A DNA stretch of 64,000 nt from the NCBI RefSeq assembly GCF_054482525.1, contig NZ_CM137006.1, one strand, 5' to 3'. A program made the position numbers. Shown one piece after another: positions 6,001-27,000 of this stretch; within the stretch, counting starts at the first letter, position 1, and each line of letters starts with the position of its first letter.

Positions 6001-9000
6001 GGGCAATCGGTGACCGTGACCGCCTTTGTGGCAATGTTTGCCAGTTTGTTTATTACCCAGACAATTCAGGCCACTGACCGCCGCTACGTTGTTATTTTGT
6101 TTGCCGTTTTGCTGACGCTCTCCTGCTTGCTGGTTTCCTTTGCCAACTCATTCAGTTTGCTTTTAATCGGTCGTGCCTGTCTGGGGTTGGCGCTGGGCGG
6201 GTTCTGGGCGATGTCGGCGTCGCTGACCATGCGTCTGGTACCGCCGCGTACGGTGCCGAAGGCGCTGTCGGTGATCTTCGGCGCGGTTTCTATTGCGCTG
6301 GTGATTGCCGCACCTTTGGGCAGTTTTTTAGGCGAGCTTATCGGTTGGCGCAATGTCTTTAATGCGGCGGCGGTGATGGGCGTGCTGTGTATTTTCTGGA
6401 TTATCAAATCATTGCCTTCGCTGCCAGGCGCACCCTCGCATCAGAAACAAAATACTTTCCGCTTATTACAACGTCCGGGTGTGATGGCAGGGATGATCGC
6501 CATCTTCATGTCTTTCGCCGGGCAGTTTGCTTTCTTCACGTATATTCGCCCGGTGTATATGAACCTGGCGGGATTCGGCGTGGATGGCTTAACTCTGGTG
6601 CTGTTGAGTTTTGGTATCGCCAGCTTTATTGGTACGTCGCTTTCGTCGTTCATTCTTAAACGTTCGGTAAAACTGGCCTTAGCAGGCGCGCCGTTAATAC
6701 TGGCTGTGAGTGCGTTGGTGCTGACGTTGTGGGGAAGCGATAAAATCGTTGCTACCGGCGTGGCGATTATCTGGGGGCTAACTTTTGCATTGGTTCCGGT
6801 CGGCTGGTCAACGTGGATCACCCGCTCACTGGCCGATCAGGCAGAAAAAGCCGGGTCTATTCAGGTGGCGGTTATTCAGCTTGCTAATACCTGTGGCGCG
6901 GCAATCGGTGGTTATGCGCTGGATAATATTGGTCTGACTTCGCCGTTGATGTTGTCCGGCACATTGATGTTGCTGACGGCGTTATTGGTCACCGCAAAGG
7001 TGAAAATGAAGTAACGTATTTACAGGAGGGGTTACTGCTCTGGCGGGAAGCTCTCCTGTTCTTCCTCCTGATAATCCTTGATCAGGTATTGTTCTTATCT
7101 TGTTGTTATTTCCATTATTCCGCCTGTATTCATCATTTGCTAATCATGAATCATCATTTTCTCTCATGTTAAAGAAAGGTCATTTAATCTGAACGCATAG
7201 CGACAGGGATGACAAATGGCAGGGAAAGCGCATGGGAACGGCGATCGTCGGGGCGATAACACCATATGTGGATTGGGGGATCGTTTACGTCGTCTGACCG
7301 CCGGTATTTGCCTAATAACACAAACTATTTTCCCTGTTATGGCTGCTGCCCCTACGCATATTAATCCTGCGCATTCGGATACTGCCGCGTCACTGATCCT
7401 GCCGAACGTTAAAACTATTCCATATACCCTGGGTGCGTTGGAATCGCCACCAACGGTCGCGGCACGCTTTGGTATCACCGTTGATGAATTACGTCGCCTG
7501 AATCAGTTCCGTACCTTTGCGCGAGGCTTTGACAATGTGCGTCAGGGCGATGAAATAGATGTGCCCCTCATTAACAGCAACAGCCCTGAAGCGCGCAACC
7601 TGAAAGCAATGCAGATGGAGCGCGACGGCAAAGATCCGCAAATGCAGGTCGCGGAAGTGGCGCAGCAAAGCGGAACACTTTTAGCGCGCGATATGGACAG
7701 CGAACAGGCTGCAAGTATGGCGCGTGGCTGGGTGGCTTCTTCTGCATCTGCGCAGGCAACGGACTGGCTCAGTCGTTGGGGAACTGCCCGGGTATCTCTT
7801 GGTGTGGATGAAGATTTCAGCCTTAAAAGCTCTTCATTTGAATTTCTCCATCCCTGGTACGAAACGCCGGATAACCTGGTCTTCAGCCAGCACACACTTC
7901 ACCGTACGGATGATCGCACTCAAACCAACCACGGTATCGGCTGGCGTTACTTCACCCCGAGCTGGATGTCTGGCGTCAATATGTTTATCGATCATGACCT
8001 GACCCGCTATCACACCCGAACCGGGATGGGCGTTGAATACTGGCGCGATTACCTGAAACTGAGCGGCAACGGTTATCTGCGCCTTAGTAACTGGCGTAGT
8101 GCACCGGAACTGGACAATGACTATGAAGCACGTCCGGCGAACGGTTGGGATCTTCGCGCCGAAGGCTGGTTACCGGCCTGGCCGCAGCTGGGCGGCAAGC
8201 TGGTCTATGAACAATATTATGGCGATGAAGTGGCGCTGTTTGGTAAAGACGAGCGACAAAATGATCCTCACGCGATTACCGCAGGTTTGAGTTACACCCC
8301 CGTTCCCCTGATCTCCTTTAGTGCCGAGCAACGGCAGGGCAAACAGGGAGAAAACGACACCCGAATTGGTATGGAGTTGACGTTGCAACCCGGCCATTCA
8401 CTGCAAAAACAGCTCGATCCGGCTGAAGTTGCAGCACGACGTAGCCTTGTGGGCAGTCGCTATGACCTGGTCGATCGTAATAACAATATTGTCCTCGAAT
8501 ATCGCAAGAAAGAGCTGGTGCGGCTGACGCTGACCGATCCGTTGAAAGGCAAGCCGGGTGAGGTTAAATCGCTGGTTTCTTCCTTACAAACCAAATATGC
8601 GCTGAAAGGTTATGACATTGAAGCCGCCTCCCTGCAATCAGCGGGCGGAAAAGTAGCTGTTTACGGCAAGGATATTCAGGTCACTATTCCTCCCTACCGA
8701 TTCACGGCAATGCCTGAAACCGACAACACTTACCCGATAGCGGTTACAGCGGAAGATTCGAAAGGAAATTTCTCCCGGCGTGAAGAAAGTATGGTGGTCG
8801 TGGAAAAACCCACATTAAGCCTCGCCGATTCAACGCTTTCTGTCGATCTGCAAATCCTGCTTGCTGATGGAAAATCAACCTCAACGCTGACCTATACCGC
8901 GCGAGATTCCAGCGGCAAGCCAATCCCAGGTATGACGTTAAAAACACAGGTGAAAGGTTTGCAGGATTTCGCCTTAAGCGAATGGAAAGACAACGGTAAC

Positions 9001-24000: not shown

Positions 24001-27000
24001 TGACAGCGTGAGTGTTTTTTCAGCCGCATTTTTTTGCGTCAGTACTTTATTATATTGCGGATCGCCAGGTTGCAGTTGCGACAGCTCTTGATTCAATGTA
24101 TTGACTTTTTTCTCCAGCGATTGCACCTTTTTATCGACCGTATTGTAATTATTATTGGCCTGATGCATGATGTCGTCGGCTTTTTGCGCGGAATCTAATG
24201 ACGAGGAGTAAGCGTCACTTAATTCACGAAACTTATTATGTGCCATTTCGTGTCGAAGCAGGGTGCTGTCAAGGTTATTATGCAAACGTGTTGTAATATC
24301 CTGATCGGCAATGCCTGTTAGATTACCCAAAATCATCGTCAGGCGGGCATCGTTCGTCTTTGCTGTAGTGGCGTTGTCGGAATCTGAAACCTGCATTTCA
24401 GGCGGAGCAAGCATAGGTTTGTTTTCAAGACGAGCGCGAATATCGTTATCAAGGGACTTCGGGTTTTTATTAAGCCGCATGGGATCAACTTGCGTTTTGT
24501 TGCTGTCCTGCAGTCTTTTTTCCGCATCGCTATACTGTGTGCGCAATGTTTCGCTGATTTGTTCAAACGTGATCGTTTGTCCCGTAATCGGTGCCGACAT
24601 AATTCACCTCCTTTTTAAGCTATCATCGGGTGTAATTAATTCTTTTTTATTTAACTCATGGCAGATGTTTATTCCCATCTAAAATGGCATCAACGGGAAA
24701 GTAAGTAATGTGTTTATTGTTATTCTTCTCATTTATTTTATCGCCATGGTTATTTTTTAAATCAACCGGGGCTTCCTCATGATATTTCCTGATTAACTCT
24801 TCAGGCGTAAAAGAAGACTTTTTTCCGTTTATGTTCATTTTGCCGACTCACTCTGTTTGAACTTCTTCTTCGGTATTGGCTGTCAAGAGTTCAAGATAAG
24901 CAGTAGCCATCTCTTTAACTTTTTCATTTTGGCTGTAGGTTACGACTGTATTAAATAACTCCGTGGCCATTTTAGTGTTTTTTAAGCCCATCTGGCATTG
25001 GCCCATATAATAAACTAAAGAGAAATCGTTATCGGGAGATAGCATTAAACAGATATGATACATGTCGAATGCCTTTTGATAATCTTTCTTCAACTGACAG
25101 ACGGCGGCATATCCTTTTAAATAGTTATAATTTTGGAAATCATAAATACAGAGAAATTTAAAAAAGAGCTCAGCTTCGTCAAGTCTTCCTTTTTCATAAA
25201 AGTTATAAGCGTAAGCATAAACGCCTTCAAGGGTATCCGGAGTAATGCCATGCAGCTCTGCAAGTGTTGCTCCCATACCTAATGCACGTTCGAACTTACT
25301 GGCAATTTCTTTATTTTCTTCTAAATCCAGATTTGCGCTTTCCATCTCTACTCTCTCCTTTCGAACATTCTTTGTTCAGACTTCACCATTTTTTAGAGGG
25401 GGGTGATATCAAAATTCGCTCATTTTTATGCCCATCCGTTGGGCTTCCTTTTCTGCATTAAAAACAAGTATTGTTTCAATGAGATAAGATTTTCTATGTG
25501 ATGAAATGAAAACAATGTAGAGGGAAATTTATCCACAATCCTGATGAACGGGTTCAATTTTGATTGGAATTTGAAAAAGCAGGTGATTTACTGATGTGCG
25601 AGCGTACGTCAGCGGCTGCTGGCCTGAGCGCGGAGGTGTGCGAAATTCACATATCCGGGCATTCCACCTTACCCAGCGCTTCCCAGTAGTTATTCTGATT
25701 ATTACGCTCCATCGCCACAATAGCTTCGCGGATATGTTGTTTGTTACTCTCATCAGACAACATTAATTTTTCCCACGCTTCGTCTGATAATGACGCCTGT
25801 GGCGTGCAAATTTTACGTAAATCTTGCAATACCGTGCTCTTTTCTTTTGCCGACTGTAGAGAACTGAATGGCGATTCGGCCTGAGAAATGGCTGGGAAAG
25901 TCAGGAATACGGTAATCATGAGTAGCATCGTTGGCTTCATAGCTGCAACCTTCTGCAAATGTGCATCGAATGAAGCATAAGTGTAGTTTGCTTTTGCCGC
26001 TCTCATCATGCTGTACGAAAGGTGTTTGCGTGGTCAGTAAGAAGTGCCAGTTTTATATACCTTTTTCTTCTATTCGATAGCTTTTCGTTTTTTAAATCGT
26101 AGTGATCTTGCCATTATAGTCAGTTAACGATTAAAAAAAGGATAAAAAAGTGAAACTGACAACACATCATCTACGGGCGGGGGCCGCATTATTACTGGCA
26201 GGAATTCTGCTGGCAGGTTGCGACCAGAGCAGCAGCGATGAAAAGCACATTAAAGTGGCGTTATTAATGGCGCAGAACAAGATGTCGCGGAAGTCGCTAA
26301 AAAGGTGGCAAAAGAGAAATATGGCCTCGATGTTGAACTGGTAGGATTTAGCGGTTCGTTGCTACCGAACGATGCGACAAATCATGGCGAGCTTGATGCG
26401 AACGTCTTCCAGCATCGACCCTTTCTTGAACAAGATAATCAGGCGCATGGTTATAAACTGGTAGCGGTGGGAAATACGTTTGTCTTCCCCATGGCGGGTT
26501 ATTCCAAAAAAATCAAAACAGTGGCGCAAATAAAAGAAGGCGCGACAGTGGCGATCCCCAACGACCCGACCAACCTTGGTCGCGCGCTTTTACTGTTGCA
26601 AAAAGAGAAGCTAATTACTCTGAAAGAGGGAAAAGGGTTACTACCTACCGCGCTGGATATAACCGAGAATCCTCGTCATTTGCAGATTATGGAACTCGAG
26701 GGGGCGCAGCTCCCGCGCGTACTGGATGATCCCAAAGTTGATGTGGCGATTATCAGCACCACTTACATTCAGCAGACCGGGCTTTCTCCGGTGCACGACA
26801 GCGTATTTATTGAAGATAAGAATTCGCCGTATGTGAATATTCTGGTAGCACGGGAAGATAATAAGAATGCAGAAAACGTGAAGGAATTTCTGCAATCTTA
26901 TCAATCATCCGAAGTCGCTAAAGCGGCAGAAACCATCTTTAACGGTGGCGCGGTGCCTGGCTGGTAATTCTCACTCATCCCGCGCCGGACGATTTATTTT

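Follow-up and report, generated by a model that had tools for sequence, protein, structure and literature searches.

A GC-rich repeat array inside an AT-rich type III secretion island of Escherichia coli: three compositional layers and their likely causes

The DNA analysed here, a stretch of 64,000 nucleotides from an Escherichia coli chromosome (contig NZ_CM137006.1, RefSeq assembly GCF_054482525.1; hereafter the window), carries at positions 7015 to 25646 the eip/selC-B genomic island, in which a long adhesin gene, iatC, faces a regulator gene and the translocon genes of a type III secretion system (T3SS). A preliminary description, made by eye, had divided the island into two halves, a GC-rich adhesin part and an AT-rich regulator and translocon part. 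We find that the composition is arranged in three layers and not in two halves. The pattern is probably accounted for by an AT-rich, ETT2-like T3SS island combined with a GC drive, presumably biased gene conversion, that is intrinsic to a homogenised tandem array within iatC, and a recent assembly from foreign modules is not needed. Most of the compositional pattern is ordinary and explainable, and the island is already known; the point of wider interest is the recurrent, host-tracking excess of G+C at third codon positions (GC3) in homogenised arrays.

Maximum-likelihood segmentation of the G+C/A+T sequence over the window, a method that sets change points without bias, placed them at 10675, 16835, 26173, 30367 and 60114; the log-likelihood ratios of the segmentation are 73, 81 and 244. 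The first block (1-10675, GC 0.508) is backbone-like and takes in the first 3.4 kb of iatC; the second (10676-16835, GC 0.605) is essentially an array of 19 units of 291 nt at 10669-16191; the third (16836-26173, GC 0.385) comprises all eip genes and the last 1.5 kb of iatC and extends slightly into yicS. The change point at 10675 lies within 6 bp of the first repeat unit, and that at 16835 falls inside iatC, at about codon 3206, 1.5 kb ahead of the stop codon. Compositional boundaries here do not match gene or module boundaries. The palindromic terminator at 18348..18369, which had been thought to separate the two halves, is a real hairpin with a conserved stem, but it is not the compositional boundary: as the AT-rich block begins inside iatC, the hairpin is a terminator within that block and not a compositional seam.

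The contrasts seen by eye were borne out by computation. Against a background of 41 1-kb windows (mean GC 0.511, standard deviation 0.039), the 1-kb windows over 10669-16191 have a GC of 0.597-0.620 (z about +2.5), and the regulator and translocon genes have a GC of 0.34-0.41 and a GC3 of 0.24-0.40 (z about -3.3). The two gene sets are also convergent, as described, with iatC on the + strand and eilA through eicA on the - strand. GC3 is 0.334 in the pooled eip genes and 0.590 in 14 backbone genes, and G+C makes up 78% of four-fold degenerate sites in the array, against 66% for the backbone and 37% for the eip genes; chi-square p values for the composition contrasts lie between 1e-30 and 1e-91. 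A single consensus unit (97 codons, GC3 0.794) already differs from the backbone at 0.590 (Fisher p = 4e-5). The two halves do not simply become alike when the repeats are excluded: the 5' part of iatC still differs from the eip genes (GC3 0.538 versus 0.334, p = 8e-30), whereas the 3' part barely does (0.384 versus 0.334, p = 0.035).

The gene iatC (7216..18333, + strand; also air or eaeX, with RefSeq using either iatC or air) encodes, according to Pfam, NCBIfam and RefSeq annotation, an inverse autotransporter (type Ve) adhesin of 3705 residues. The barrel, the Big_1/invasin-D3 passenger and the D4-D5/lectin-like cap are all found: Pfam IAT_beta (PF11924) matches residues 149-423 with an E-value of 5e-108, Big_1 matches 22 stretches, Invasin_D3 matches 25 and Invasin_D4 is detected at 1e-12, while the NCBIfam equivalog for the IatC N-terminus (NF040978) is passed with 3119 bits (cut-off 2400). 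LysM is absent from the Pfam families detected at E <= 0.001; a periplasmic LysM domain ahead of the barrel has been reported for IatC/EaeX (PMC6714894, PMC7058095).

The composition of iatC changes along this domain order. The 5' part (7216..10668, + strand; GC 0.522, GC3 0.538) covers the N-terminus, the β-barrel and non-repeated immunoglobulin-like (Ig) domains; this 5' third resembles the resident paralog yeeJ in composition and sequence, its barrel sharing 72% of amino acids and about 76% of nucleotides with that of E. coli YeeJ. The GC-rich tandem array follows (10669..16191, + strand), for which TRF returned a period of 291, 19.0 copies, 84% matches and no indels, that is, 19 in-frame Big_1 units of 97 residues, with an overall GC of 0.612 and a GC3 of 0.757. 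Past the array, the first non-repeated Ig domains form a transition zone (16192..16835, + strand; GC 0.53, GC3 0.502), and the gene closes with an AT-rich 3' end (16836..18333, + strand; GC 0.425, GC3 0.384, down to 0.35 near the end), within which lies the invasin D4-D5/C-type-lectin-like tip (about 17752-18252, + strand). Residues 3513-3679 of the protein match residues 296-460 of Yersinia invasin (1CWV) with an E-value of 1.7e-17. The GC-richness that had been attributed to the Ig-repeat region as a whole is therefore a property of the homogenised array; it does not extend to the non-repeated Ig domains ahead of it, which at 0.50-0.53 are backbone-like, nor to those just after it.

The number of array units differs between strains by whole units (19, 20, 23 and 24), giving gene lengths of 11118-12573 nt. 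The IatC of E. coli SMS-3-5, an inverse autotransporter described as exposed at the cell surface and as promoting biofilms, has the same barrel, Big_1 repeats and C-type-lectin cap (PMC6714894). It differs in length, with 2459-2965 residues as against 3705 in the window, and no evidence for variability of its repeat number was found (Goh et al. 2019, PMC6714894), whereas repeat number varies among the alleles compared here, as has been reported for EaeX (PMC7058095).

The array stands 9-10 GC points above the backbone. Part of this lies in the encoded protein: Ala, Val, Thr and Gly codons are indeed abundant, at 938 of the 1841 array codons (51%), and G+C at second codon positions (GC2) is 0.525, compared with 0.414 in the backbone. 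From its amino acids and backbone codon usage the array would be expected to have a GC of 0.562, against 0.528 for the backbone and 0.612 observed, and a GC3 of 0.597, against 0.757 observed; about 40% of the GC excess follows from amino-acid composition and about 60% is synonymous. Codon choice in the array is strongly skewed, with AAG for 100% of Lys, CAG for 99% of Gln, GAG for 80% of Glu, AGG and CGG together for 98% of Arg, ATC for 82% of Ile and GTC for 51% of Val. That the rarest Arg codons are employed speaks against translational selection on the array. Amelioration of the adhesin gene, which had been proposed as one cause of the GC-rich signal, is unsupported, because the array overshoots the GC of its host and does not approach the host value.

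Every one of the 19 units is GC-rich (GC 0.58-0.64, GC3 0.70-0.80), although the units share only 84% of their nucleotides and 76% of their third positions. Since 24% of third positions differ among them, a recent amplification of a single GC-rich unit is ruled out. Recombination has made a patchwork of the units: the four-gamete test is failed by 69% of informative site pairs, neighbouring sites are less incompatible than permuted ones in a PHI-like permutation test (p < 0.0005), and units next to each other are no more similar than those far apart. Among 40 biallelic third-position sites segregating G or C (S) against A or T (W), 34 have S as the major allele, a count that is unpolarised and that other explanations predict likewise.

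Continual gene conversion and unequal exchange between the units, with a fixation bias favouring GC, would raise the synonymous GC of such an array, and GC-biased gene conversion (gBGC) would be the likeliest form of this bias; import of the array from a GC-rich donor would then not be needed. Recombining bacterial genes reportedly have a higher GC3 (Lassalle and colleagues, 2015). The likeness to bacterial gBGC is that the synonymous GC excess is confined to the most-recombining segment and that recombination among its units is evident; the difference is that elsewhere conversion takes place between genomes, whereas here it would be intragenic, between tandem units, and presumably biased. A literature search for gBGC in bacterial tandem repeats gave nothing relevant.

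Comparison with related adhesin genes ties the signal to the homogenised array. The E. coli paralogs yeeJ and iatD, whose barrels are about 76% identical in nucleotides to that of iatC, have no nucleotide-level array, and their composition is flat (GC 0.46-0.53). The Ig domains of YeeJ have a GC2 of 0.41-0.52, like the array, yet their GC3 is only about 0.51. With three units as query, a search across 1.8 billion representative proteins recovered many long relatives, none with units closer than about 50-60% amino-acid identity. We took the DNA of eleven relatives, determined for every 291-nt window of the passenger the GC3 and the closest paralog within the gene, and called repeated those windows with an intragenic paralog at 75% identity or more, a definition under which nine genes qualify, iatC included. 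Repeated windows exceed the unique passenger windows of the same gene in GC3 in 9/9 genes, by 0.08 to 0.48: +0.26 in E. coli, +0.15 in Salmonella enterica, +0.12 in Klebsiella quasipneumoniae, +0.21 in Yersinia sp., +0.17 in Y. pestis (Ilp), +0.48 in Serratia marcescens, +0.08 in Rahnella, +0.09 in Sodalis and +0.16 in Orbus. Genes with only 60-75% internal identity have a smaller excess (+0.01 to +0.09). The GC of the arrays tracks that of the host, from 0.475 in Orbus (flank 0.37) through 0.585-0.60 in Yersinia and 0.61 in both E. coli and Klebsiella to 0.665 in Serratia. As the arrays are 44-52% identical in amino acids, so that their synonymous sites are saturated, GC3 reflects forces acting in each lineage and not inheritance.

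Yersinia ruckeri Ilm (mentioned in PMC6714894) and Y. pestis Ilp (L021) are likewise inverse autotransporters with near-identical Ig repeats, and the Yersinia arrays share a period of about 291-309 nt and an identity of 80-84%; in Ilp and the Yersinia sp. homolog, GC3 is 0.67-0.68 in the array and 0.46-0.51 in the unique parts. They differ from IatC in their hosts and tips and in having no linkage to a translocon operon.

These results favour a process intrinsic to homogenised arrays, for which gBGC is the obvious candidate and selection the main alternative, a single GC-rich import being less likely. Of the causes put forward in the preliminary description, it is thus the drive by repeat composition that is preferred, as the signal starts at the array, is absent from the array-less paralogs and recurs in all nine genes. 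It is a more tentative proposition, which we regard as possible but would not yet back, that homogenised Ig-domain arrays in inverse-autotransporter genes are driven above the synonymous GC of the rest of their own gene and of their host, across Enterobacterales and Orbaceae and whatever the GC of the host, by GC-biased intragenic conversion. If true, such arrays would report on bacterial gBGC from within a gene whose unique domains act as controls, and would offer a cheap, well-controlled test of gBGC in bacteria. Composition-based methods would then mis-flag repeat-rich adhesin genes as foreign, and the reading of a GC mosaic as an assembly from different donors is unsafe when a gene holds a homogenised repeat array.

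The other half of the proposed account concerns the island and its AT-rich block. The window is E. coli chromosome, and 17000-25700 is 100% identical to strains SCU-102 and PCN033, whose annotation of the matching region lists iatC, eilA, a SipD-family protein, SctE and a SycD-family protein. The island (7015..25646, 18.6 kb) is inserted between the stop codon of nepI and that of yicS; in DH5alpha, where the site is empty, the two stops are about 40 bp apart, and the span given in the preliminary description proved to be exactly the island. In genomes without the island, homology to the window stops at the end of nepI. About 755 of 5426 complete E. coli genomes carry it, and its presence/absence polymorphism at a fixed site and its atypical composition mark it as a horizontally acquired island.

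The eip/selC-B island of enteroaggregative E. coli 042 is said to go back to work by Ren et al. in 2004 and Sheikh et al. in 2006. The island in the window is this previously described one: it has the same site, three backbone genes from selC, the same genes (eaeX/air, eilA, eipD, eipC, eipB and eicA) in the same order and orientation, and the same variability in Big-repeat number. The gene content and position of the eip locus are published (PMC7058095, PMC11068852), as are its absence from K-12, its insertion between nepI (yicM) and yicS/nlpA near selC (PMC7058095, PMC4210603, PMC11068852) and, for strain 042 and ST69, the EilA-dependent expression of the eip genes and air and the co-occurrence of the island with an intact ETT2 (PMC4210603, PMC7058095). 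ETT2, which is encoded elsewhere and outside the window, is said to receive translocators and a regulator from the island (PMC7058095, PMC4210603, PMC11068852, PMC2808357). No GC analysis of the island came up in the searches made of the later literature on it.

The AT-rich block at 16836-25646 would have the composition of horizontally acquired, H-NS-targeted T3SS DNA, as ETT2 has, whose GC is 36.9% in a chromosome of 50.8% (PMC11068852); silencing by H-NS has been documented for hilA, ygeH and ETT2 (PMC4210603). The block would not have ameliorated, though the island appears to be as old as the divergence of its carrier strains. Island genes are mostly 96-99% identical between strains, as are the flanking nepI, yicL, setC and yicH, and the two halves travel together, with the iatC 5' region in 754 and the eip half in 755 of the 5426 genomes. 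No integrase or transposase open reading frame (ORF) was found in 7015-25646. Strict co-occurrence, backbone-like divergence and the absence of mobility genes speak for one old acquisition, which, with later loss in many lineages, fits the distribution; a recent join does not.

Several points weigh against the account given here. Repetition inflates the codon counts of the array, so that the effective E. coli sample is about 97 codons, and an E. coli-unlike codon usage would arise from foreign ancestry too. The units are nearer to arrays of other genera than to the Ig domains of YeeJ. The comparative sample is small; the surveyed arrays are homologous, at 44-52% amino-acid identity, which leaves the nine cases short of full independence; the host GC values rest in part on short flanks and on general background; and one weakly repeated metagenomic gene (L022) has no GC3 effect. 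The weak-to-strong fixation bias is inferred from these patterns, and H-NS targeting of the AT-rich block and its co-ancestry with ETT2 are inferred as well. Finally, searches with EilA and EipB recovered no close eip ortholog outside E. coli: a scan of 100,044 species-representative genomes for EilA gave 99%-identical contigs and one irrelevant 28% match, with no ortholog from another species, and all 120 EipB matches listed are E. coli variants, with no outgroup among them. As to the 99%-identical contigs, two come from GTDB representative metagenome-assembled genomes labelled Collinsella sp. and uncultured Clostridium sp. (L006 and L007); they are almost certainly E. coli DNA mis-binned into Gram-positive genomes.

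An assembly of the island from modules would explain the sharp change point at the array start and a codon usage foreign to E. coli (AGG/CGG, AAG, GAG, GTC, ATC). On this view recombination brought in the GC-rich array, or all of the 5' two-thirds of iatC, from an organism of higher GC and linked it to a tip and eip genes of another, low-GC origin, so that the mosaic would reflect separate horizontal transfers. The nearest relatives also differ by segment: the barrel has 72% identity to YeeJ, the units have 44-52% to the arrays of Salmonella, Klebsiella, Serratia and Sodalis and only 30% to YeeJ, and nothing sampled exceeds 31% identity to the tip. Cassette-like replacement is moreover demonstrable at the tip and at eipB/eipC, as described below. 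However, no donor was found, the best non-E. coli array lying at about 50-60% amino-acid identity, and array GC scales with host GC across genera, low-GC Orbus included, so that there is no shared donor value. The units have diverged at 24% of their third positions and are all still GC3-high, and the two halves strictly co-occur, diverge like the backbone and lack mobility genes. We consider such an import unlikely. Modules of different origin, as first suggested, are not required by the data, with both halves co-occurring and the compositional break inside one gene, though the different nearest relatives of the three iatC segments make an ancient chimeric origin possible.

Selection on the DNA or RNA of the array seems to us no more probable. 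High GC might avoid H-NS binding, or spurious promoters or Rho-dependent termination multiplied 19-fold, or might tune mRNA structure or limit slippage. Such selection would fit the specificity of the GC3 excess for the repeated segments of nine genes, and the gene is embedded in AT-rich, probably H-NS-silenced DNA, where promoter-like hexamer matches cluster, with none listed between 7173 and 17583; as the rare Arg codons argue against ordinary translational selection, it would have to act at the nucleic-acid level. However, the non-repeated Ig domains of iatC, yeeJ and iatD face the same hazards in transcription and translation and are not GC-enriched. The dose-like relation of the excess to internal identity is also more naturally read as reflecting the frequency of gene conversion.

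It is very improbable that amino-acid composition alone makes the array GC-rich. The share of Ala, Val, Thr and Gly codons and the high GC2 do raise the expected GC to 0.562, but as a sole cause this is refuted by the observed GC3 (0.757 against 0.597 expected) and by the four-fold degenerate sites (78% against 66%), and the Ig domains of YeeJ combine a similar GC2 with a GC3 of about 0.51. A chance fluctuation or an artefact of inspection by eye, of negligible probability, is refuted by the segmentation (log-likelihood ratios 73-244), the chi-square tests and the one-unit test.

A gene with a comparable layout occurs outside E. coli. In Serratia marcescens (AP028510.1, 6001-16689; L014), a 3562-residue inverse autotransporter is encoded in an AT-rich (GC 0.39), integrase-bearing region of a genome with about 59% GC, and its gene presents an extreme three-part pattern, with a GC of 0.567 in the N-terminal part, 0.665-0.670 in a 22-unit array and 0.41 in the unique C-terminal windows; GC3 is 0.81-0.82 in the array and 0.33 in the C-terminal windows. 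AT-rich lectin tips are only partly a rule among inverse autotransporters, being seen in Serratia (0.41) and IatC (0.42) and not in YeeJ, IatD, Klebsiella or Sodalis, and a kinship of the Serratia tip with that of IatC was rejected at about 30% identity.

The hairpin between the convergent iatC and eilA (18348..18369, + strand) has a perfect 9-bp stem, reading TTGCCCTGC-ATAT-GCAGGGCAA followed by TTTATCTT. Its predicted folding energy is -17.1 kcal/mol (z -4.4 against shuffles, none of which folds equally well). The stem is invariant in three divergent alleles while the loops and flanks vary, which argues that it functions as the iatC terminator; judged from these sequence features, the hairpin is probably a conserved iatC terminator, and it is unrelated to the compositional boundary. 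A bidirectional role was rejected, as the T-run is present on the + strand only, and termination of eilA at this hairpin is doubtful. A second terminator-like hairpin (20229..20251, - strand), with a 9-bp stem, 6 GC pairs and a CGTTTTATAT tail, lies between eipD and eilA; this consensus match suggests that eilA may be transcribed from its own promoter, consistent with the use of a 500-bp eilA promoter reporter (PMC7058095).

Two segments of the island are hypervariable. The tip cassette (17401..18430, no strand assigned), delimited by identity to an Air-type allele (L018), comprises the part of iatC that encodes the lectin-like domain, the stretch between the two genes and ~14 codons at the end of eilA. 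The window matches that allele at 82-87% over 17401-17850 and at 51-69% over 17851-18430, with 93-100% on both sides and 97-100% within a few hundred bases to either side of the most divergent part. The Air tip type is carried by 622/743 genomes, and both tip alleles are equally AT-rich. The second segment comprises eipC and eipB, whose nucleotide identity to the common allele is 85% and 91% (dS 0.21-0.28, dN 0.14 and 0.05, respectively); for eipC alone, dS is 0.27-0.28 and dN/dS about 0.5. In the same strain pair, the neighbouring genes have a dS of 0.01-0.08, and eilA, eicA and the 60-codon ORF (orf60) are 97-100% identical. The EipB proteins form two allele groups, with 98% and 85% amino-acid identity to the query. 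The 042-type (Air) allele departs sharply from the window over the final ~600 nt of the adhesin gene and over eipB/eipC, the window carrying the rarer IatC-type tip together with the rarer eipB/eipC allele.

The tip and eipB/eipC look like exchanged or long-maintained cassettes at host-facing parts, and these two segments point to host-facing diversification in a T3SS of debated function. Intimin (eae) of LEE is likewise encoded by a mosaic gene, with a conserved N-terminal barrel and a variable C-terminal receptor-binding domain. iatC resembles it in its conserved 5' part and its cassette-like, hypervariable lectin-type tip, in AT-rich DNA next to T3SS genes, and differs in its long homogenised GC-rich array, which is absent from eae. 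We know of no Tir-like receptor for IatC.

The regulator and translocon genes all lie on the - strand. The gene eilA (18383..20080; GC 0.354, GC3 0.306) encodes a HilA-family transcriptional regulator, scoring 952 bits against a cut-off of 589 for the NCBIfam HilA/EilA equivalog (NF009037) and carrying the Pfam domains Trans_reg_C and TPR; EilA is a paralog of YgeH of ETT2 (228 bits). The needle-tip protein of the SipD/IpaD family is encoded by eipD (20283..21632; GC 0.408), with Pfam T3SS_TC at an E-value of 3.5e-34 (score 119 versus 25) and matches to SipD structures at 8e-25. The product of eipC (21676..22806; GC 0.341, GC3 0.244) matches none of the Pfam or NCBIfam models, SipC/IpaC included; it is presumed to be the minor translocator from its position between eipB and eipD, and it is named in the literature (PMC4210603). 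EipB (22819..24600) belongs to the major translocators (SipB/IpaB, SctE), with Pfam T3SSipB (score 41.4 versus 31) and SseC and matches to IpaB structures at 2e-6. As the NCBIfam equivalog cut-offs are not reached for the major translocator (113.8 versus 828) or the tip protein (135.9 versus 219), EipB and EipD are family members and not Sip orthologs. EicA (24848..25345) is a class II T3SS chaperone of the SicA/LcrH/SycD family, with TIGR02552 (LcrH_SycD) at 114.6 against a cut-off of 104.8 and Pfam TPR_3; it scores 151 for the SicA equivalog, under the cut-off of 184. Between eicA and eipB, a small ORF of 60 codons (24656..24838) is annotated as hypothetical and has no family match; it is frameshifted in L018 (strain NMBU-W13E19), has a dN/dS of about 1.4 against L003 (strain A30) and may not be a real gene.

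This gene set has the chaperone, translocators, tip protein and HilA-type OmpR/TPR activator of Salmonella SPI-1 (sicA-sipBCD and hilA) and of Shigella (ipgC-ipaBCD), as well as their AT-rich DNA. It differs in being detached from the secretion apparatus and in the distance of its proteins, with EipD, EipB and EicA all under the equivalog cut-offs. No secretion-apparatus genes were found in the island or elsewhere in the 64-kb window, and according to the literature the apparatus is encoded at ETT2/glyU, away from the eip cluster.

Around the island, the gene order is uhp, adeD, adeQ, yicN, a RelE/HTH pair, nepI, the island, yicS, nlpA, yicL, setC, tRNA-Sec and yicJ. The island adjoins no tRNA gene directly, selC (tRNA-Sec, 29826-29920) lying 4.2 kb away, past yicS, nlpA, yicL and setC; no search was made for direct repeats at the junctions. 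Abutting selC is a short piece of rhuM without its two ends (about 29631-29747), probably a relic of a former selC-inserted island, the selC-A of the literature. The pair between yicN and nepI (4936-5602, - strand; GC 0.42-0.46) encodes a RelE/ParE-family toxin and a helix-turn-helix (HTH) antitoxin and is absent from the DH5alpha locus, which makes it a second small strain-variable insertion next to the island. On the other side, nlpA is broken into a pair of overlapping ORFs (26150-26344 and 26305-26967); the annotation of the identical strain SCU-102 gives it as a frameshifted pseudogene, and the other strains compared have it intact. At the far end of the window, 60115-64000 is a further AT-rich block (GC 0.37) set off by a significant change point, and it corresponds to the waa/rfa cluster for the lipopolysaccharide core, with waaO, rfaP, rfaY and others.

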